A DNA stretch of 64,000 bases from an uncultured bacterium (GCA_965370415.1 CBDUTJ010000004.1:30665-94664), one strand, 5' to 3'. Positions 1-9,877 are shown, counted from the first letter of the stretch. Notes: generated by a model from the sequence alone, not told the origin. Numbers and translations: made by a program.

Positions 1-810
1 AGTGGAAAGATATAAAAGCGGGCGATTGTAAAGCGGCTGACCGAAACCTAATTTCATGATTGTAAGATACAAACCGATGAGAATACCTGCCAGGCTAAAT
101 GTTGATCCGATCCTGCCGAAAAGATACAGCGGACTGTGAATGTATCCTGTAACAAGTTTTACCGTTAACAGGTCAAGAAAACCGCGCAGATATCTTTCTG
201 CTCCGTATTTGGATTTCCCAAATTTGCGTGACCTGTGATGAACTGGAATTTCAGCTACTTTAAATCCTTTGGCGTCAGCCAAAGCAGGGATGTAACGATG
301 CATTTCTCCATAAATGTCCAGCTCTTCGATAACCTCTTTGCGGTACGCTTTGAAGCCACAATTGAAATCATGAAGTTTTAATCCGAATGATGATGATACA
401 ATAGAATTAAATAATTTAGAGGGTCCTGTTTTAGAAATCGGGTCTTTACGTTTCTTCTTCCATCCTGTTACCAGATCAAAACCCTCTTCCAGCTTCTTTA
501 TAAAGTTTGGGATTTCAGTTGCATCGTCCTGCAGGTCTGCATCCATTGTAAAAACAATATCTCCTGTAATTGCATCGAATCCCGATTGCAGTCCGGCTGC
601 TTTGCCAAAGTTTTTTCGGAAGCGGATTATCTTTACATTTTTATCTTTTTTTGCCAGTTCCTGCATGATATCCAAACTGTTGTCTGTAGAGCCGTCATCT
701 ACAAAGATAATTTCGTATTTCATGTTGCCTGTATTTTCGATTATTTCTGAATAAAGTTGTTTCAGGCTCTGGTCTTCGTTATAAACTGGAATTACAAATG
801 ATAATTTCAT
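1..810 (-). CDS. Family-2 glycosyltransferase of the polyprenyl-phosphate sugar transferase type (GtrB/ArnC/DPM1-like); C-terminus runs off the window
   Basis: Not in the ORF track because there is no stop inside the window. My translation from the ATG at 810-808 reads MKLSFVIPVYNEDQSLKQLY...IIFVDDGSTDNS...RFRKNFGKAAGLQSGF...FTMDADLQDD, followed by hydrophobic C-terminal helices. GAGG lies 6 nt upstream of the ATG. Confidence 0.8.
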   Translation of the reverse strand, partial: MKLSFVIPVYNEDQSLKQLYSEIIENTGNMKYEIIFVDDGSTDNSLDIMQELAKKDKNVKIIRFRKNFGKAAGLQSGFDAITGDIVFTMDADLQDDATEIPNFIKKLEEGFDLVTGWKKKRKDPISKTGPSKLFNSIVSSSFGLKLHDFNCGFKAYRKEVIEELDIYGEMHRYIPALADAKGFKVAEIPVHHRSRKFGKSKYGAERYLRGFLDLLTVKLVTGYIHSPLYLFGRIGSTFSLAGILIGLYLTIMKLGFGQPLYNRPLLYLST

Positions 811-834
811 ATTCTACCTCACAATAATGTTTAT

Positions 835-1425
835 CTAAAAAATCAGGTTTACTAAAGACATTACAATTCCTGCTGAAATTGGAATTTTAATGTTATCGTC
901 AACCGGCAGGGGAAAAATTTCAGCAATAGTTGCAGCTACCGCTCCTGCCAGGGCAATAAACGGGTTTAAGAAGAAAAGTGCAAAGATAAAAGTTCCAATA
1001 AAACAAGCCATACTTCCTTCCAAACTCTTATTAGTTCCCAAAAGTTTACGCTTTCCAAAAGGAATTCCCACCAGTGCAGCCAATGTATCGCCTATAGCCA
1101 GGAAAGCAATAGCTACAAAAGCAATATCAGCAGGAAAAACAGCGATGCAGATCAAAGTAGAGATCATCATGTAAGTGGCACCTGTGAAATCGTGAAATTC
1201 ATGCTCACGCAGCATAAGGCCAAAAAAATCCAGGAAAATCCTTTTAACCGTTTTATGCTCTATCCGTGCGATTTCGATTACAAGAGCTATCAATGTAAGT
1301 GGAACCAGAACAATGAAAGCCAGTTTCCTATCATTATGAAATAAATACCGATAGGAAAGCGGCAGGATCAGGGCACTCACATGAATGGTTTTGCGAAAAA
1401 ACTCTCTTTTCTGTTTATCATTCAT
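835..1425 (-). CDS. Polyprenol/phytol/dolichol-kinase-like integral membrane protein (CTP-dependent DGK1/VTE5/Sec59 family)
   Basis: 196 aa and multi-TM. Motifs are FFRKTIH near the N-terminus and IGDTLAALVGIPFGKRKL...NKSLEGSMACF, as in phytol/dolichol kinases. Its ATG overlaps the stop of the upstream reductase gene (ATGA at 1422-1425). Confidence 0.55.
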   Translation of the reverse strand: MNDKQKREFFRKTIHVSALILPLSYRYLFHNDRKLAFIVLVPLTLIALVIEIARIEHKTVKRIFLDFFGLMLREHEFHDFTGATYMMISTLICIAVFPADIAFVAIAFLAIGDTLAALVGIPFGKRKLLGTNKSLEGSMACFIGTFIFALFFLNPFIALAGAVAATIAEIFPLPVDDNIKIPISAGIVMSLVNLIF

Positions 1426-2615
1426 TTCATTTTGATCTTACTTACAATAAAAGCCTTTGCCACATCTATCATCAATTTAGGATCACCTTTCACGGCTTCG
1501 GTGAAAAGCGCTTTCAGACTGAATTTATCTCTGGGGATTTTCTGGCAGAATTCCACGATCCTGTTAAATCGCTCATCGTTCATATTCATAAATTTTTCTT
1601 TCATCAGGAACATGGTTTTCTGCGTTTTACCCAATCTTTTATCCCATTCTTTTCTATACTCTTTCAAGAATTTTTTATCGAACCGTTTTTCTTTTACGGC
1701 TTGAGCTGCCACTTTTCCGGCAATACTACCAGCGATCATTGCCTGTACAACACCACCTCCCGTGATAGGATTAACCTGGCGAGCAGCATCTCCCACCAGC
1801 ATAATGTTATCTTTCACTATTTCATCCAAGGTAGCTGCGGTTGGAACTCCGCCGTACATTGTGTAAGTTATCTTTGCATTAGGAAAGCGTCTCTGCACGA
1901 ATTCATCTAAATATTCTTTAGGTCCTTTTGGGTGGGAAAGATGTCCCGATAAGCCAATACCAACATTGGCGGTATTATCGGATTTCGGAAATATCCAGAT
2001 ATAACCGCCGGGTGAAACTTTGGTCCCAAAATAAAACTCGCAAGTGTCTTTTTCAATATTGATATCGGTGAGTGTATACTGTGCGCAGGTGTCTATGTCT
2101 TCCAGGCGGACAGCTGTTTTAATTCCTGCCCATCTTCCCACGCGGGATTCCACACCATCTGCACCGATAACAATATCACATTTAACTTTTCTTATTTCAC
2201 CTGAATATTTATATTTTACTCCGGCTATTTTCCCATCTTCCCACACCAGGTCAAGAGCATCTGCTTTGGTAATAAGATGTGCTCCATGTTTAGCAGCAAG
2301 TTCACAAAGAGCTGTATCGAAGACCCTTCGTTCCAATACGTAACCTAATCCATTATTATACATTTTGGCCATTTCTCCGTTGGGAGAATGCAATTTTGCC
2401 ACGTCAATGCGGCTTGCTATCCAGCGCTGGTCAATATCGATGAAAGGAGCTATTCCGTTATGAGAAACACCTTCGGCACAACGCACTGGAATGCCCGGTT
2501 CTCGATCACGTTCCAACATTAAAACCGATGCCCCGTTCTCTGCTGCAAACCTGGCAGCCACGCTGCCGGCAGGTCCTGCCCCGATAATAACTATATCATA
2601 TCTATCTTGTACCAT
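1422..2615 (-). CDS. Geranylgeranyl reductase family FAD-dependent oxidoreductase
   Basis: 397 aa. N-terminal dinucleotide fold YDIVIIGAGPAGSVAARFAAENGASVLMLERD, then RCAEGV and the C-terminal GDAA motif (MLVGDAARQVNPITGGG), typical of GGR/ChlP/BchP-type reductases. Confidence 0.85.
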   Translation of the reverse strand: MVQDRYDIVIIGAGPAGSVAARFAAENGASVLMLERDREPGIPVRCAEGVSHNGIAPFIDIDQRWIASRIDVAKLHSPNGEMAKMYNNGLGYVLERRVFDTALCELAAKHGAHLITKADALDLVWEDGKIAGVKYKYSGEIRKVKCDIVIGADGVESRVGRWAGIKTAVRLEDIDTCAQYTLTDINIEKDTCEFYFGTKVSPGGYIWIFPKSDNTANVGIGLSGHLSHPKGPKEYLDEFVQRRFPNAKITYTMYGGVPTAATLDEIVKDNIMLVGDAARQVNPITGGGVVQAMIAGSIAGKVAAQAVKEKRFDKKFLKEYRKEWDKRLGKTQKTMFLMKEKFMNMNDERFNRIVEFCQKIPRDKFSLKALFTEAVKGDPKLMIDVAKAFIVSKIKMK

Positions 2616-2785
2616 TACTCACCTTCCTCGATAGCTTTGATGGGACAAACCTTCAGGCAATTAAGGCAGTTAGTGCATTTTTCATTATCAATTTCAACTA
2701 TGAATTCGGATACAACTATTGCATCAGCAGGGCACACCGCTACACAAGTTCCGCAGATATCACATAGATCTCTATTAATTTTCAT
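2615..2785 (-). CDS. 2x[4Fe-4S] ferredoxin (56 aa), missing from the ORF track
   Basis: My translation is MKINRDLCDICGTCVAVCPADAIVVSEFIVEIDNEKCTNCLNCLKVCPIKAIEEGE, with two CxxCxxCxxxCP motifs. Its TAA overlaps the reductase ATG (TAATG at 2613-2617). At 171 nt it falls below the track's 60-aa cutoff. Confidence 0.75.
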   Translation of the reverse strand: MKINRDLCDICGTCVAVCPADAIVVSEFIVEIDNEKCTNCLNCLKVCPIKAIEEGE

Positions 2786-2799
2786 ATAACCTCAAAAAT

Positions 2800-4371
2800 T
2801 TATAATAAATAATTTGCTTTCCTGTGATCTACCATTTTAAATGAAGAACCCTTGAATTTGAAAACTACATTATAGCACTCATCCGGAAGAAGATTATTAT
2901 TCGATCCTTTTATCTTTACTTTCTGGTAATCCCGTCTGGGAAGGTAATTCTTCATGAGGAAATGTGGATTGGGATTTCCTTTACCGAAAGGCTGCAATAA
3001 TTGATAATCCATCTGGAGATACTCGTCAAATTTATTGAAATCATTGGAAGTAAAAACAGCATCGATGTTAATGCGTCTGTTTTCTTCAATATCTAATTTT
3101 TTTAATTTTACATATTTGCTAAACTTTTTCTGGAAAAGGTCGATGTTTTTTTCCTGCATACTAAAACCTGCCGCCTGGGTGTGTCCACCAAACTGGATCA
3201 GATGTTCCTGGCAGTAAGCAAAAGCATCTACCAGATTAAAGCCTTCCGTACAACGCCCTTCACCTATTATCTTTCCGTTTTTGTGACAAAGAAAAACTAC
3301 CGGGATCTTACAGGTCTTGGAAATTTGAGAAGTACAATAACCAAGCAATTCAACAGGTATTTCACCATTCTTATCAAAATGGATGAAATAAAGTGACGCG
3401 TTTCTGGGCGCTATTTGTTGCAGGTATTTCCGGCTTTTTTTCAATGCTTCCTCTTGCATTTGTTGCCTTTCAATCAGCTTCCTGACAATGATCTCTTTTT
3501 CTTCTGTGGGAGCAAGAAACAGATTCATGGTTAAATTCTGACCGCCTTTCATACGTCCACTTGATAGTATTTTTACAATACGGTTGATAATGAAAATACG
3601 ATTATGATAACTTAGCGCAGGTTTCAGGAATGGTTTAAGCTTTTCCAGAGTCAAATCGTCAAAAGAATGCCAGTTATCTAACACTTCTTTCATGAAGATC
3701 CTGTTCACTCCATCTAATGGCACCTTATCAGCAAAACTTCCCACTGCAACCCAGAAAAGATAGTTTTTATCGAATTCTGTTTGTAATTTTTCTGCAAGTT
3801 TTCGAATAAGAAAATAGATAACACCAACCCCTGCCAGCATGTTAAAAGGATAGTTGCAATCGCTCTGTTTGGGATTGATCACAGCAAAAGCATCGGGAAT
3901 CTTATCATCCAGTATAAGGTGATGATCTGTAATTATAACGTCAGTACCATTTTCCTGAATTTCATGGATAGCATCAAATTCAGAAATACCGCCGTCCACA
4001 GTTATCAGCAATTCTATTTTTTCCTGTTCTATTTTTTCTATAAGTTTTTTCTGAATACCATGACAATCCAACTGACGGTTAGGAATATAATAATAATGGT
4101 TTTGGGAGCCAATCTTTTCCAAGAAGTCGAAGATCAGATAGGTAGAAGTAATACCATCCATATCGTCATGACCGTAGATAATGATCTTCTCTTTTCTATG
4201 AATGGCAAAGATGATCCTTTCCGCAGCTTTATCCAGATCTTTCATCAGAGACATATCCGGAAGATCTTTCAGAGAGGAATAAAGGAAAGATTCCGAGATT
4301 TTTCTGTTCTTCAGGATCTGCTCAAAAATAGAGAGATTACGGCTTTCGTTATAGTTCCACTTGAACTTCAT
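2800..4371 (-). CDS. recJ: Single-stranded-DNA-specific exonuclease RecJ (DHH/DHHA1 phosphoesterase)
   Basis: 523 aa with the DHH-family motifs IIIYGHDDMDGITS, TVDGGIS, ITDHH and GGHTQAAGF. Confidence 0.8.
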   Translation of the reverse strand: MKFKWNYNESRNLSIFEQILKNRKISESFLYSSLKDLPDMSLMKDLDKAAERIIFAIHRKEKIIIYGHDDMDGITSTYLIFDFLEKIGSQNHYYYIPNRQLDCHGIQKKLIEKIEQEKIELLITVDGGISEFDAIHEIQENGTDVIITDHHLILDDKIPDAFAVINPKQSDCNYPFNMLAGVGVIYFLIRKLAEKLQTEFDKNYLFWVAVGSFADKVPLDGVNRIFMKEVLDNWHSFDDLTLEKLKPFLKPALSYHNRIFIINRIVKILSSGRMKGGQNLTMNLFLAPTEEKEIIVRKLIERQQMQEEALKKSRKYLQQIAPRNASLYFIHFDKNGEIPVELLGYCTSQISKTCKIPVVFLCHKNGKIIGEGRCTEGFNLVDAFAYCQEHLIQFGGHTQAAGFSMQEKNIDLFQKKFSKYVKLKKLDIEENRRINIDAVFTSNDFNKFDEYLQMDYQLLQPFGKGNPNPHFLMKNYLPRRDYQKVKIKGSNNNLLPDECYNVVFKFKGSSFKMVDHRKANYLL

Positions 4372-4379
4372 TAGGTACT

Positions 4380-5603
4380 TTACCTGCGGTCTTCCTTAGG
4401 AATATCGCGATGTTCAATCTTTTTAGGGCGTTTCTTGAAAATATCAAATCCGGTTATTCCGAAAGAAAACATCAATGATTCATCACTGAGCCCATGTTTA
4501 TCAATGTCACCACGAATTAGATATTTTATCGCAAGATCAATCTTTTTATTTGGAGATTTAAGTGGAATGGATAACCCAAACGTTAGAGCTTGTTCAGTAA
4601 TTTTTTCCTGATTCTTTTCAAAAGGAAGTTCACGATAATATCCACCAATACGAACTGGAATTCGTTCCAACCAACCACCATAACCACTCAAGGGGTCGTA
4701 AGCCAGTCCGAAACCAATCTTCAGGGAATTCTTATCGTAATATTCAGTATCTTCCCACATTGCATAATAAACATCGAAAGAAGCTTTATATTTATCTATA
4801 AATTTCCAAGTCAGTCCACCTGAAATTCTGGCAGGTATTTCAAATAAAAAATCATCTGTCAGGTCCAGTGTGTCTGCATAGGGAGTATGCCCGTATTTGT
4901 AAATAACCTCTCCTTCCAGTTTAGTATAAGTAGAATAAGTTGTACCCAATGAAAAGTTTTTCAATTTTTTACTAAGACCAACTGTAATTCCGGGATTTTT
5001 AAAGGTCTTCTCGATTTCATATTTTGCGTCTACCATTGTGTATTCATCGAAATCAAGCTTCCAATAACGAATGCGGTGACCGATATAATAATTTACCGCA
5101 ATCCCGAAATTTACATACGGGTTTTTATAAGCATATAATGCATCTGCCCGGTAAACATTTGAACTCAGTTTGTTTGTTTCGATGTAATTCAGAGTATCTC
5201 CAAAATCGCTTGTCCAGATAGTTTCTTTCTCGTTTTCCAAATTACCGCTGTACATAGAATTAAAATTAAACCCGATCCTGTGATTCTTGAGTGGAACAGC
5301 TATGGAGAAATAGGGGAAATAAATCCCGTCATCTCGATACTTGTTGTCATCTGTATCTTTATACCACATCCAGCCCAGGGAAACACCGGTGGAAAAAAGA
5401 ACCTTATTTGTAGTAGTTGCTACAGACGGATTAGTAAAATTTGGGTTAATACGGAAGAGGTCGCACGAACCAGTTTCGCCCATTCCCAGTCCATAAATGT
5501 CATTGCCGTTGTATTCCTGGGGCATACCATCAAAAGAAAAAATTGAATTTCCCATAAGCAGGGAAAATATCAACATTAAGGATATTAAAAAAATATATCG
5601 CAT
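4380..5603 (-). CDS. Outer-membrane beta-barrel protein, function unknown (possibly PorV/PorQ/FadL-like)
   Basis: 407 aa with a signal peptide, alternating aromatic/polar beta-strand pattern and a C-terminal aromatic-rich segment. The GLGMGETGS...NPNFTNPS segment resembles the N-terminal motif of the barrel at 9907-10803. Confidence 0.45.
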   Translation of the reverse strand: MRYIFLISLMLIFSLLMGNSIFSFDGMPQEYNGNDIYGLGMGETGSCDLFRINPNFTNPSVATTTNKVLFSTGVSLGWMWYKDTDDNKYRDDGIYFPYFSIAVPLKNHRIGFNFNSMYSGNLENEKETIWTSDFGDTLNYIETNKLSSNVYRADALYAYKNPYVNFGIAVNYYIGHRIRYWKLDFDEYTMVDAKYEIEKTFKNPGITVGLSKKLKNFSLGTTYSTYTKLEGEVIYKYGHTPYADTLDLTDDFLFEIPARISGGLTWKFIDKYKASFDVYYAMWEDTEYYDKNSLKIGFGLAYDPLSGYGGWLERIPVRIGGYYRELPFEKNQEKITEQALTFGLSIPLKSPNKKIDLAIKYLIRGDIDKHGLSDESLMFSFGITGFDIFKKRPKKIEHRDIPKEDRR

Positions 5604-5843: not shown

Positions 5844-6404
5844 ATGGCGTCGACTTCCGATATCAGGAATGGCATGATTATCAAGTTCAAGAATGATCTT
5901 TATGAAATTGTTGAATTCCAGCATGTTAAGCCAGGTAAAGGCGCCGCTTTTGTTCGTACAAAACTGAAGAACGTGAAGTCAGGTAAAGTTATCGATAACA
6001 CCTTTCGAACCAGTGAGAAACTGGAATCAGTACGAGTGGAAAAACATAAGAAAGAATATCTTTACTTCGATGGTGAATTCTACGTTTTTATGGATAGCAA
6101 TACCTATGAACAGATACAGGTTGACAAAGAAGTAATTGGTGATAACAAAAAATTCCTTGTCGAGAATATGGAAGTAGCCATGAAGCTCGATCCGGAAGGT
6201 CAAATACTTGGATTAGAACTTCCGGTAACTGTTATCCAGGAAATCACAGAATGCGAGCCCAATGTGAAAGGAAATTCCGCTTCCGTAAGCGGTAAGAAAG
6301 CTGTAACGGATAGAGGATTGAATATTACCGTTCCCTTCTTTATAGAAGTGGGCAATAAAATAAAAGTCGATACCAGAACCGGTGAATATCTGGAAAGAGT
6401 ATAA
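5844..6404 (+). CDS. efp: Translation elongation factor P
   Basis: 186 aa. N-terminus TSDIRNGMIIKFKNDLYEIVEFQHVKPGKGAAFVRTKLKN is the canonical EF-P KOW/loop region. GAGGAG lies upstream. Confidence 0.95.
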   Translation: MASTSDIRNGMIIKFKNDLYEIVEFQHVKPGKGAAFVRTKLKNVKSGKVIDNTFRTSEKLESVRVEKHKKEYLYFDGEFYVFMDSNTYEQIQVDKEVIGDNKKFLVENMEVAMKLDPEGQILGLELPVTVIQEITECEPNVKGNSASVSGKKAVTDRGLNITVPFFIEVGNKIKVDTRTGEYLERV

Positions 6405-6745: not shown

Positions 6746-9700
6746 ATGAAAAAAGTTTTTTGTCTATCTCTAATAATCGGACTAATTAACGTTTTTCTTT
6801 CTGCAGTTCCGTCTGTACCCGGAAAAACTACTGGATTACCAAATTATAAAGAGTATTCTTCTGAAATCTATTCCCGTTCAAATCCAGATAGGAACAGAGA
6901 CCTGCCCCAAAGTATTTTGGCTCTGATGGTGGAATTTAACGATATTACATTTGACCTGATTCCCGACTACCCGGATTCCCTGAAACACGATAAGGAATAT
7001 TTTGAACGACTGCTTTTTCATATGACCTCTTTGTTTGATGACGCCTCGCACGGGCAATATGTTCTTACCGAAGAAAATTACACTGTTTGGGAAAATATCA
7101 TAACTGTTTCTCAGGAAATGGGCTATTATGGTGATGATGATCTTTCTCTGGAACGAGTTTGTGAACTCGTGCAGGAAGTAGTGGAAATTGCAGATGATCA
7201 GTTGGATTTTAATGATTATGATGCAATAATAATTATTCATGCCGGTGCTGGGCAGGAAAGCGATCCCGATATGGAGGAAGAAATTTACAGCACGTTCCTT
7301 AGTCGCAGATCTCTGCAAGCAGGTATCGATCCGGAAAATGATGATTTTCCCGGTATTGAAACAGACGATGGAATTATCTTAAAAGAATTTGCGATAATGC
7401 CGGAAACGGAATGGCAGCCGGATTTTACATTGGGAGATCCCGTCTATGGTCTCCTGGGAGTTATCTGCCACCAGTTCGGCCACCAGATAGGTCTGCCCAC
7501 GCTCTTCGATAATGATAGTGATAATGGGGCTTCTGCCGGTATCGGTTCTTTCGGTTTGATGGGTACAGGAGTATGGAATGCCAATGGTTTTGTCCCTCCG
7601 CTTCCTTGTGCCTGGTCACGTTATTATTTGGGCTGGGAAGATAATAATATTATCGAACTGAATTCATCTTTTGAAAACATGCCGCTTACTTCTCCCACTG
7701 CCGATGATGACGACACACCAAAATTATATAAAATAATTATATCAGATAAAGAGTATTTTCTGCTGGAAAATCGCCAGCAGAACCCGGATGGCAGCATGTT
7801 TGGTGATGATCCTTCTTTCACTTTTGAACTTCTTCCAGAAGGTCAGCAAGATGTATATCCTCCCGGGCACCCTAACGAGGGACAGCCCAAATTCAATTTT
7901 ATGGAAAATACTTACAAAAATTGTGAATGGGACTTTTACCTGCCGGGATTGGGAGGACCGGATTCACCGGTAATAGACGGTTCCGGTATGCTTATCTGGC
8001 ACATCGATGAAAATATAATCGATGCTAATTTTGATCCTGATTTCGAGAGTAACTCTATAAATGCTGATGCTTCCCATAAAGGAATTGACCTTGAAGAAGC
8101 AGATGGTATCCAGCATTTAGACACTGCTTATCAATTCTACAGCTGGGGTTCGCCTTATGATGCTTACCGTGAAGGCAATAACACTTATTTTGGTGATCTT
8201 ACTCATAATGGTTTATACTCTTTACCAACAGCAGAAAGTTACTATGGTGGAAATCTTATCGACATCTTCAATATCGGTGAATCCGATTCTTTGATGACTT
8301 TTTCTGTTCATTATGAATGGTCGCTCAATGCAGATTATATTGGAGAAAATCCCTTTCCTGCTGCAATAATCGACTTCGATGGAGTCGGGAAAAACGAGAT
8401 TTTCTATCCAATGCCAAATGGTAAATTATATTTGTGGAAAGATGATATAGATTATCCGGGATTTCCTCTGAATCTTTCTATTGTTTCAGTACTAAGCGAT
8501 TATTATTCTTTTGATACTGTAACCGGAAGCATTTTTATTCCTGCCGAAACTACAGTAGGTGATAATGCCATGCTATTCCGTATTGATAATGACTTGGAAA
8601 ATCTGCAGGAACTGTGCCTTTTTGAAAACAATCGGGAATGGCTGGCTGCACCGGTAATTAATCCAGATACTACTTTAGCACAAAGAGTGTTTCTTCCACT
8701 TTCGGCATCTTCCGGAACTGGAAGTGAAATAATTGTACTCGATTCACTTTATCAAACCCTGACTTCCTATTCTTTTGATCTGCATATTTCATCCAATTTG
8801 ATGCTGAAAGAGCAAAAACTTTATTTCATTTCAGATGGCTGGAAGCTTGTTAAGATCGATATAATCAGCGAAGAAACTGAAATAACTGATTTGAGCATAA
8901 TTGATCCTCTACCTGTAATCCATTCCGCATTACTGGTAGATATCGACGGTGATGAAACAGACGAGATCATAGTTGTAACCGACAACTGTGCTGTTTACTG
9001 TTTTAAGCAGACAGGAGAGCTGAGAAACGGCTTTCCCGCAGAAATAGAACTAAATGCTGTTTCTATTCCTTCTATTGCAGATGTGGATAATAACGGGTTT
9101 CTTGACATCCTGATAGGTGGTGAAAATACATTTGCTGTGGTTAATAAAAATGGAGATGTTTTTCAACCGCAGGAAGTAATTTCTGATCCCGATTCCACTT
9201 TTACTACTGCTGGTGTTATTGCTTTTGATATCGATAATGATGGTGATCTGGAGATACTGGGAAATATGTCGCGCAATAGACTTTGCGTATGGGAAAACCT
9301 GAACAATTCCAACTTTGAGTTAAACAGGAATTATCCGGTTTCATTTGGTGAACGTAGTCTGAATTATCCACTCATTTCAGGCTCGGAAAACGAAAATATC
9401 TATGTATACATTCCAAGTAATAACGGTACGATTTTCCGTTCTAATCTTCTCTTTGCAGAATTTGATGATATTGTACAAACTGCCTGGAAAATTGAATATG
9501 CCAATCTGCAAAGAACCGCTTCCTACCTGGATACAACATCACTACCTTCTTATCCAGCAAAAAAAGTATTCAACAAAGCTAAAACTTATTTCTATCCCAA
9601 TCCGCTCAACAGGATATTTTCAAAGGGTATAGATTTTAATAATAATGTTCCTGAATTCACTATAATTTTAAGGATCGAAACTTACGTGGATACAGATGTG

Positions 9701-9877
9701 AAAATAAAAATATTTGACATCGCTGCGAATCTTATTTACACAAACACAGTGCATTGTGAAGCAGGTTTTTCTAATAATGTATACGTGAATGCAAAAAACC
9801 TGTCTTCGGGTGTTTACTTTGCAGTGCTAAAGGCAAAAGGGAAGGTGTTGAAACTTAAATTTGCTATAGAAAAATAA
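6746..9877 (+). CDS. M6 (immune inhibitor A)-like metalloprotease homologue with FG-GAP/VCBS-type repeats and a T9SS C-terminal sorting domain; active-site motif reads HQFGH
   Basis: 1043 aa with a signal peptide. ILALMVEFND and IIIHAGAGQES match the M6 N-terminal region. VICHQFGHQIGLP sits where HExxH is expected. DIDGDETDE and DVDNNGFLD are FG-GAP-like repeats. The C-terminus YFYPNPLN...GVYFAVLKAKGKVLKLKFAIEK is T9SS-like. Confidence 0.7.
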   Translation: MKKVFCLSLIIGLINVFLSAVPSVPGKTTGLPNYKEYSSEIYSRSNPDRNRDLPQSILALMVEFNDITFDLIPDYPDSLKHDKEYFERLLFHMTSLFDDASHGQYVLTEENYTVWENIITVSQEMGYYGDDDLSLERVCELVQEVVEIADDQLDFNDYDAIIIIHAGAGQESDPDMEEEIYSTFLSRRSLQAGIDPENDDFPGIETDDGIILKEFAIMPETEWQPDFTLGDPVYGLLGVICHQFGHQIGLPTLFDNDSDNGASAGIGSFGLMGTGVWNANGFVPPLPCAWSRYYLGWEDNNIIELNSSFENMPLTSPTADDDDTPKLYKIIISDKEYFLLENRQQNPDGSMFGDDPSFTFELLPEGQQDVYPPGHPNEGQPKFNFMENTYKNCEWDFYLPGLGGPDSPVIDGSGMLIWHIDENIIDANFDPDFESNSINADASHKGIDLEEADGIQHLDTAYQFYSWGSPYDAYREGNNTYFGDLTHNGLYSLPTAESYYGGNLIDIFNIGESDSLMTFSVHYEWSLNADYIGENPFPAAIIDFDGVGKNEIFYPMPNGKLYLWKDDIDYPGFPLNLSIVSVLSDYYSFDTVTGSIFIPAETTVGDNAMLFRIDNDLENLQELCLFENNREWLAAPVINPDTTLAQRVFLPLSASSGTGSEIIVLDSLYQTLTSYSFDLHISSNLMLKEQKLYFISDGWKLVKIDIISEETEITDLSIIDPLPVIHSALLVDIDGDETDEIIVVTDNCAVYCFKQTGELRNGFPAEIELNAVSIPSIADVDNNGFLDILIGGENTFAVVNKNGDVFQPQEVISDPDSTFTTAGVIAFDIDNDGDLEILGNMSRNRLCVWENLNNSNFELNRNYPVSFGERSLNYPLISGSENENIYVYIPSNNGTIFRSNLLFAEFDDIVQTAWKIEYANLQRTASYLDTTSLPSYPAKKVFNKAKTYFYPNPLNRIFSKGIDFNNNVPEFTIILRIETYVDTDVKIKIFDIAANLIYTNTVHCEAGFSNNVYVNAKNLSSGVYFAVLKAKGKVLKLKFAIEK

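Follow-up and report, generated by a model that had tools for sequence, protein, structure and literature searches.

The lipid geranylgeranyl reductase (GGR) of Methanosarcina acetivorans is reported to need the ferredoxin encoded at its own locus for the reduction of digeranylgeranylglyceryl phosphate (DGGGP) (PMC10821996; PMC7852524, ref. 83). Archaeal GGRs share a list of motifs made up of GxGxxG, a catalytic cysteine (Cys47 in SaGGR), PxxYxWxFP, LxGD, RxxxD, and GGG (PMC10821996). Among bacteria, Villanueva et al. (ISME J 2020/21) described synthases of geranylgeranylglyceryl phosphate (GGGP) and of DGGGP (GGGPS and DGGGPS) from Candidatus Cloacimonetes that were active in Escherichia coli, and that paper (PMC7852524) terms the GGRs of this group “closely related to Euryarchaeota” and points out the absence of CarS and glycerol-1-phosphate dehydrogenase (G1PDH). 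The occurrence of GGR in Cloacimonadota is already published, and the unit of ferredoxin and GGR is known from archaea. Here, we describe such a unit in a 64,000-nucleotide stretch of DNA from an uncultured bacterium (GCA_965370415.1 CBDUTJ010000004.1:30665-94664), which is referred to as the window. The host genome belongs to the Cloacimonadota, as judged by the names of homologues, and its assembly is 2.8-Mb and 96.6% complete. Four open reading frames (ORFs) on the minus strand of window positions 1-2785 encode a ferredoxin (Fd), a GGR, a kinase-like membrane protein of 196 amino acids (KIN), and a family 2 glycosyltransferase (GT2). On balance, we favor the reading that these are two functional pairs lying side by side, Fd-GGR for the saturation of ether lipids and KIN-GT2 for the formation of a polyprenyl-phosphate hexose.

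The ferredoxin and reductase unit

The Fd gene (2615..2785, minus strand) encodes a 2x[4Fe-4S] ferredoxin of 56 amino acids, which matches Pfam Fer4 and Fer4_10 and contains the complete CxxCxxCxxxCP motif twice (residues 8 and 37). Its stop codon TAA shares one base with the ATG of the GGR gene (1422..2615, minus strand), giving TAATG. The encoded GGR, of 397 amino acids, is a flavoprotein of the archaeal lipid-GGR type. It scores 245.6 bits against TIGR02032 (cut-off 158.8), which places it within the family, and 99.7 bits against PF22578 GGR_cat (cut-off 27). The closest solved structure is the digeranylgeranylglycerophospholipid (DGGGPL) reductase of Thermoplasma acidophilum, 3OZ2 (258 bits, E 1.4e-75, residues 4-376), and the best named NCBIfam models are archaeal DGGGPL reductases as well. 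Every motif of the published list is present (GAGPAG at 12, RCAEG at 45, RRVFD at 96, PGGYIWIFP at 202, LVGD at 273, and TGGG at 285), and the motifs are invariant in eight diverse Cloacimonadota GGRs. At the gene level the locus thus has the makings of a ferredoxin-coupled lipid GGR, with a di-cluster ferredoxin adjoining a reductase related to the Methanosarcina enzyme. The initial annotation had proposed an archaeal-style GGR with a dedicated ferredoxin, and TIGR02032, 3OZ2, the motifs, and the adjoining Fd all bear this out.

Species-representative genomes were scanned with a GGR alignment, which gave 80 loci. A homologous Fd lies directly upstream of GGR at 18/18 Cloacimonadota loci, 19/21 other bacterial loci (37/39 bacterial loci overall), and 35/40 archaeal loci. 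The archaeal loci with Fd upstream come from Methanosarcinales, Methanocellales, Archaeoglobi, Thermoplasmatota, and Methanoperedens, and the other bacterial ones from Ignavibacteriota, Fidelibacterota, KSB1, Calditrichota, Bacteroidota, and Latescibacterota. Sequence and linkage suggest that Fd is the electron donor of GGR, and this linkage, together with the co-occurrence of GGR with GGGPS and DGGGPS described below, points to DGGGP-type lipids as the probable substrates of the reductase.

Both FastTree and IQ-TREE (mixture model) recover a GGR clade of bacteria of the Fibrobacteres-Chlorobi-Bacteroidetes (FCB) group, with the Cloacimonadota inside it, as sister to a euryarchaeal clade. In line with the archaeal affinity claimed initially, the window GGR groups with archaeal lipid GGRs and not with non-isoprenoid flavoproteins. 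Of five other FCB genomes that carry Fd-GGR, every one encodes a strong GGGPS (5/5). The longest branches of the tree are those of GGRs from lineages without GGGPS, which suggests a changed constraint and fits a changed role.

Elsewhere in the host genome, contig C28 carries genes for a prenyl synthase, a DGGGPS-like UbiA, and GGGPS in a row. The GGGPS exceeds the cut-offs of both TIGR01769 (219.6 vs 161.55) and NF003198 (280 vs 247). The best models for the UbiA protein are DGGGP synthases, and its score on NF009521 is 194.1, under the equivalog cut-off of 296. A canonical uppS-cdsA pair is also present (CdsA 203 bits), and canonical CdsA is reportedly able to make CDP-archaeol, as stated in PMC7852524. 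GGGP and DGGGP synthase genes were what the initial annotation had named as worth looking for in the rest of the genome, and the presence of GGGPS and a DGGGPS-like gene favors the option it had given as “other saturated isoprenoid lipids”. Next to these genes on C28, a gene for a CpsB/CapC-family (PHP-type) phosphatase (L011:8789-9562) begins with the final base of the stop codon of GGGPS and is followed by genes for an epimerase, a methyltransferase, and an LPG-synthase-TM-like membrane protein. The phosphatase and the genes after it may represent ether-lipid head-group chemistry.

Two other reductase roles were considered and rejected. On the models for the chlorophyll reductases BchP/ChlP, the GGR reaches 154.3 vs 343.3 (TIGR02023) and 92.7 vs 505.3 (TIGR02028), and on NF045655, for a MenJ-type reductase of quinone side chains, it reaches 65.8 vs 700. 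The host genome has only one GGR-family gene, and its sole UbiA-family gene is the DGGGPS-like one on C28; because both are single, a role on quinone side chains is unlikely.

A second, distant GGR-family paralogue occurs in some Cloacimonadota, with 26-28% identity to the window GGR and without a ferredoxin (L051:7133-8413, L053:8012-9244, L059:7646-8851, L061:7843-8982, and L064:6203-7372). It is unlinked to the locus, its neighbors encode large proteins of unassigned role, and it explains the GGR matches in genera g19, g18, and g21 of the family denoted f3. Outside the phylum, other genes adjoin the Fd-GGR unit. An unclassified UbiA prenyltransferase gene lies directly upstream in Neomarinimicrobiota, Cytophagia, Calditrichaceae, and one unclassified bacterium (L091:256-1290, L093:3791-4795, L099:4003-4968, and L086:965-2152); it was considered as a DGGGPS and rejected, at 24-26% identity and 40-57 bits on any NCBIfam model. 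In Thermoplasmatota, a gene for 190 amino acids is regularly found ahead of Fd-GGR (L113, L120, L128, L132, L135, L137, L140, L142, and L145), and the copy at L145:4249-4821 matches endonuclease dU/PRK00766 with 225 bits (cut-off 235).

The kinase-like protein and the glycosyltransferase

KIN (835..1425, minus strand), a putative prenol or polyprenol kinase that would use CTP, is a membrane protein with multiple passes and belongs to the CTP_transf_1 (CdsA/CarS/SEC59-VTE5) superfamily; its start codon overlaps the GGR stop codon as ATGA at 1422-1425. The only Pfam match is PF01148, at 21.0 bits for the protein and 24.1 bits in a six-frame search (cut-off 24), and it covers profile positions 55-195 of 264 only; in precomputed tables, PF01148 is assigned to several of its close homologues. 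No match was found when the KIN sequence was searched against the PDB, and PF01864 (CarS) gave none even at E 10. An AlphaFold2 model of KIN (pLDDT 92) has TmCdsA as its top fold, with a Foldseek probability of 1.0 and E 0.012, and with a VIA-align Z of 9.1 and a root-mean-square deviation (rmsd) of 5.3 over 164 aligned residues. The second fold, CarS 5GUF, aligns with the C-terminal half only (Z 7.5, rmsd 2.8, 94 residues). The model thus predicts a CdsA-like polytopic membrane fold for KIN.

Public records name KIN homologues as SEC59/DGK1/VTE5 family, dolichol kinase, polyprenol kinase, phytol kinase, or phosphatidate cytidylyltransferase. Polar residues are conserved in the family. We take kinase chemistry as more likely than cytidylyltransferase chemistry. 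Salvage of the phytol type, to the diphosphate by a VTE6/DUF92 kinase, was rejected, as no DUF92 gene was found in the genome. The KIN family is large, with 9232 representative clusters matched at E values of 0.001 or below, and three distant homologues outside the phylum lie in housekeeping-gene contexts without a GT2 or GGR neighbor. Two proteins fuse the KIN domain to another one (P0253, 590 amino acids, and P0186, 402 amino acids), one with a Glyco_transf_21/GT2-like domain and one with CoaE. These are single cases; a KIN-Glyco_transf_21 fusion would be a Rosetta-stone link between a kinase-like protein and a membrane glycosyltransferase.

After a gap of 24 nt (811-834), KIN is followed by GT2 (1..810, minus strand). 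The window start cuts this gene, leaving the first 270 of 310 amino acids inside; the whole gene is found at L010:11878-12810. GT2 matches PF00535 with 127 bits. Its residues 2-289 align with ArnC 9-295 from solved structures (186 bits), and it scores 105 bits with GtrB sll0501 and 83 bits with the DPMS of Pyrococcus furiosus. It has two C-terminal hydrophobic segments, at 234-252 and 272-290. The protein is therefore predicted to be a polyprenyl-phosphate glycosyltransferase of the ArnC/GtrB/DPM1 type, and it stays below the cut-offs of the named equivalogs (ArnC, PgfS, AglJ, and Dol-P hexose transferase), the best being ArnC NF007986 with 182.6 vs 529. A UDPGP-family gene lies 21 nt downstream in the same string, beyond the window. 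The positions, the strand, both overlaps (TAATG and ATGA), and the gap of 24 nt that had been annotated for the four genes can all be read from the sequence.

Distribution of the two pairs and readings of the locus

A recJ-like gene and a BamG-like gene lie upstream of Fd on the same strand, and the order BamG-like gene, recJ, Fd, GGR, KIN, GT2 is found again in other Cloacimonadota, with proteins that are 53-82% identical, so it is not a chance feature of the host genome. Conservation of the four-gene linkage, whose absence the initial annotation had listed as refuting its proposal, is seen over most of the phylum. Presence and absence were tallied at the family level in one fixed sample of 151 Cloacimonadota genomes, in which absences in draft genomes count as “not found”. 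GGR was matched in 81 genomes, GGGPS in 65, a DGGGPS orthologue in the same 65, and KIN in 140. GGR is present in 63 of the 65 genomes with GGGPS and DGGGPS; the two exceptions have no KIN match either, and the locus is probably unassembled in them. Among the 86 GGGPS-negative genomes, 68 have no GGR match, 7 have only the distant paralogue or an unlinked copy, and about 11 have GGR at this locus.

The two pairs separate on either side. In family f3 (69 genomes), KIN is found in 69/69, GGGPS in none, and 60 genomes have no GGR match; the locus there reads recJ, KIN, GT2 (L048), as it does at L060, also without Fd-GGR. Family f12 has KIN in 6/6 genomes and no GGR match in any, and its locus consists of KIN-GT2 only (L049). 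All three GGR-less loci inspected (f3 G003, f6 g26 G025, and f12 G002) hold KIN and GT2 together. The converse occurs in part of family f6, where two of seven GGR loci were inspected: these read recJ, Fd, GGR, GT2 with KIN deleted (L052 and L065). A Cloacimonadaceae metagenome-assembled genome has recJ, Fd, GGR, GT2, UDPGP and no KIN (L073), with a GGR about 70% identical to that of the window. In these three KIN-less loci GT2 follows GGR directly, and KIN may have been lost more than once. GT2 comes directly after KIN in every inspected KIN-bearing Cloacimonadota locus; the one exception is L070, in which the two are separated by an ORF of 576 amino acids. In family f13, which belongs to a different order (L055-L057), the pairs are split by thiE, thi4, thiC, and thiD between GGR and KIN-GT2 (L056), with fewer of these genes in L057 and a 23S rRNA intervening-sequence protein also within the thiamine insertion of one genome; upstream, glycine-cleavage P-protein genes stand in place of recJ. 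Outside the Cloacimonadota, a KIN-GT2 pair downstream of Fd-GGR was found at 0/61 loci (21 bacterial and 40 archaeal), and one archaeal locus has a distant KIN-like gene on the other strand. Given the GGR-less KIN-GT2 loci, the KIN-less Fd-GGR loci, and the thiamine split in f13, the stable units are Fd+GGR and KIN+GT2, and their adjacency is an old synteny of the phylum that can break on either side.

What the data show are the gene families with their motifs, Fd and GGR as a unit, and the patterns of orthology and of phyletic co-occurrence; from these we infer the following division of labor for the two-pair reading. The di-cluster Fd would pass electrons to the FAD-dependent GGR of archaeal lipid type, which would most likely saturate the geranylgeranyl chains of isoprenoid glycerol-ether lipids, or of the precursors geranylgeranyl diphosphate (GGPP), GGGP, or DGGGP. 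Synthesis of the ether lipids would fall to the prenyl synthase, the DGGGPS-like UbiA, and the GGGPS encoded on C28. KIN would phosphorylate a prenol or polyprenol with CTP, and GT2 would load onto the polyprenyl phosphate a hexose that is probably supplied via the downstream UDPGP gene. This carrier-lipid function would belong to the core of the phylum and be independent of the reductase.

Several observations weigh against the two-pair reading. The GGR does not reach the equivalog cut-offs of the DGGGPL reductases (271/780 for NF041160, 199.9/580 for NF041080, and 117.5/700 for NF041385), and the SH-aLRT values of the two main GGR clades are 91-92, below the star threshold (support of 90-92 over the two trees). 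Neither G1PDH nor CarS was found in the host genome, which leaves the ether-lipid pathway incomplete on paper. The co-occurrence counts ignore kinship and may reflect only 2-4 loss events. Fd-GGR overlaps KIN through the ATGA and, over most of the phylum, retains KIN, GT2, or both as neighbors. Finally, four genomes (G019, G045, and G085, each assembled as one contig, and G064) have Fd-GGR at the locus with intact motifs, no GGGPS, and no UbiA-family gene, so the reductase there must have another substrate, for which the carrier lipid of the neighboring GT2 is an obvious candidate.

These observations bear on how far the two pairs cooperate. The Fd-GGR unit could have a dual role, in which it saturates ether-lipid chains and also some isoprenes of the carrier, with KIN and GT2 turning the latter into a partly saturated, dolichol-like polyprenyl-phosphate hexose, in which case the coupling of functions at the locus would be genuine, though not obligatory. 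The ATGA overlap of GGR with KIN is consistent with this, as are the Fd-GGR-KIN-GT2 order kept in most families of the phylum and the catalytically intact Fd-GGR beside GT2 or KIN in genomes without GGGPS and UbiA; furthermore, when the single GGR of Haloferax volcanii is deleted, neither its dolichol phosphate nor its diether lipids are reportedly saturated any longer (Naparstek et al. 2012, cited in PMC10821996), a precedent that makes a dual role plausible. We nevertheless consider it unlikely, because KIN-GT2 stands without Fd-GGR at the inspected f3, f12, and f6 g26 loci, with KIN in all 69 f3 and all six f12 genomes, and because the pairing of Fd-GGR with KIN-GT2 is absent from all 61 loci outside the phylum. 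Both recJ and the BamG-like gene are members of the string too, joined in f13 by a thiamine operon, so that adjacency is weak evidence for a shared function. It is likewise doubtful that GGR also reduces isoprenes of the carrier lipid, a function that would then be its sole one in the lineages that lost GGGPS and every UbiA.

The initial annotation had gone further and suggested that the four genes together form one pathway to a dolichol-like sugar carrier. In its strict form, the GGR would have nothing to do with ether lipids and the locus would only make a saturated polyprenyl-phosphate sugar carrier. The tight coupling and conserved order would fit this, and so would the similarity of GT2, which is closest to polyprenyl-phosphate glycosyltransferases with the archaeal Dol-P-Man synthase among them, and the retention of Fd-GGR in lineages without GGGPS and UbiA. 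It is nonetheless improbable, since GGR tracks GGGPS/DGGGPS (63/65) and stands at the locus in only about 11/86 of the other genomes, while the longest branches among the GGRs of GGGPS-less lineages suggest changed constraint and KIN-GT2 is independent of GGR. A single four-gene pathway is not supported as proposed, in view of KIN-GT2 without Fd-GGR (f3, f12, and f6 g26), the KIN-less f6 loci, the f13 split, and the 0/61 count outside the phylum. The part of the proposal that is favored is that of other saturated isoprenoid lipids, as GGGPS and a DGGGPS-like gene are in the genome. Alternatively, KIN might be a cytidylyltransferase that replaces the missing CDP-archaeol synthase, making Fd-GGR-KIN a unit for ether-lipid maturation. 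The CdsA/CarS fold of its model (Z 9.1 and 7.5), PF01148 as its only Pfam match, the absence of CarS from the genome, and the many public records naming its homologues phosphatidate cytidylyltransferase would agree with such a substitution. We find it very improbable, given that KIN occurs in 140/151 genomes, including 75 from f3 and f12 without GGGPS or a DGGGPS orthologue, and that a canonical CdsA (203 bits) is present which is reportedly CDP-archaeol-capable (PMC7852524). Moreover, PF01864 has no match in KIN or in the genome, KIN matches only positions 55-195 of the 264 in PF01148, and other sources name its homologues SEC59/DGK1/VTE5 or polyprenol kinase.

The four genes are part of a longer, mixed-function string. 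The recJ-like gene, for a DHH/DHHA1 exonuclease (2800..4371, minus strand; TIGR00644 335 bits vs cut-off 396.9; Pfam DHH and DHHA1), ends 14 nt from Fd, and the gene for the BamG-like outer-membrane protein (4380..5603, minus strand; NF053685 BamG 102 bits vs cut-off 250) lies 8 nt from recJ. The BamG-like gene is the first of the co-directional genes, and the string ends at the divergent efp (5844-6404). At the inspected Cloacimonadota loci, recJ keeps its place ahead of the locus with or without Fd-GGR. There is no evident functional link between recJ or the BamG-like gene and the lipid genes. A promoter scan was uninformative (27 promoter-like sites vs 28 expected), and a terminator scan gave none that was convincing within the string. 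Farther on, the plus strand of the window (6746-9877) encodes a T9SS-sorted protein of 1043 amino acids with an M6-like metalloprotease domain and FG-GAP repeats, whose best NCBIfam model is an “inactivated” M6-like protease (301 bits, cut-off 600).

Relation to known systems

For “mixed” archaeal/bacterial membranes, the main test case in nature is provided by Cloacimonadota together with other FCB bacteria, and what the present locus contributes is a likely donor of electrons for saturating the chains. With families that have or lack GGGPS/DGGGPS, Fd-GGR, and KIN at one syntenic locus, the phylum offers a clean natural experiment that can help in selecting strains or enrichments for lipidomic work. 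It also calls for caution, as the tight operon should not be read as a single “bacterial dolichol” pathway. If GGR does act on a carrier lipid in the GGGPS-less lineages, bacteria would be shown to modify their carrier lipids in a new way. A locus Fd-GGR-KIN-GT2(-UDPGP) that made a partly saturated polyprenyl-phosphate hexose would parallel, in bacteria, the dolichol chemistry of archaea and eukaryotes with a non-homologous reductase.

The supply of Dol-P-hexose, by SEC59/DOLK followed by a DPM1/ALG5-type GT2, or in bacteria by GtrB/ArnC on undecaprenyl phosphate, resembles the locus in that a CTP_transf_1-superfamily protein adjoins a GT2 and a UDPGP gene lies downstream. It differs in that the putative KIN-GT2 pair exists in the phylum with or without the reductase. 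The polyprenol reductase of eukaryotes (SRD5A3/DFG10) is not known to have any relationship to GGR-family enzymes.

The ether-lipid genes of Ca. Cloacimonetes (PMC7852524) are from the same phylum and agree with the host genome in their gene set, which corresponds to the C28 cluster plus one GGR, and in their gaps (CarS and G1PDH). Relative to the available portion of that paper, the points added here are the dedicated Fd, the fixed site of Fd-GGR between recJ and KIN-GT2, and the pattern of presence and absence over the phylum, including Fd-GGR in a few lineages that lost GGGPS and DGGGPS. The DGGGPL reductase of T. acidophilum (3OZ2) also has 397 amino acids and matches over nearly its full length, whereas the Thermoplasmatales equivalog NF041160 gives the window GGR only 271 bits vs 780. 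The GGR of H. volcanii, HVO_1799 (Naparstek et al. 2012, via PMC10821996), is a precedent for one GGR serving both diether lipids and dolichol phosphate; it is likened here by function and not by sequence, and its host, an archaeon, has the full lipid pathway of archaea.

The closest described system is the GGR and ferredoxin of M. acetivorans (Isobe et al. 2014 and Ogawa et al. 2014, as cited in PMC10821996 and PMC7852524). The window GGR differs from it in having a bacterial host in whose genome G1PDH and CarS were not found and in falling into the FCB sister clade. The two are alike in having a small 2x[4Fe-4S] ferredoxin directly upstream of a GGR of about 390-400 amino acids. The same Fd-GGR unit is found at the Methanosarcina loci L110 and L116-L118, with 42-44% identity to the window for GGR and 45% (L116) for Fd, and all GGR motifs (GxGxxG, the catalytic cysteine, PxxYxWxFP, LxGD, and RxxxD) are shared with the M. 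acetivorans enzyme.

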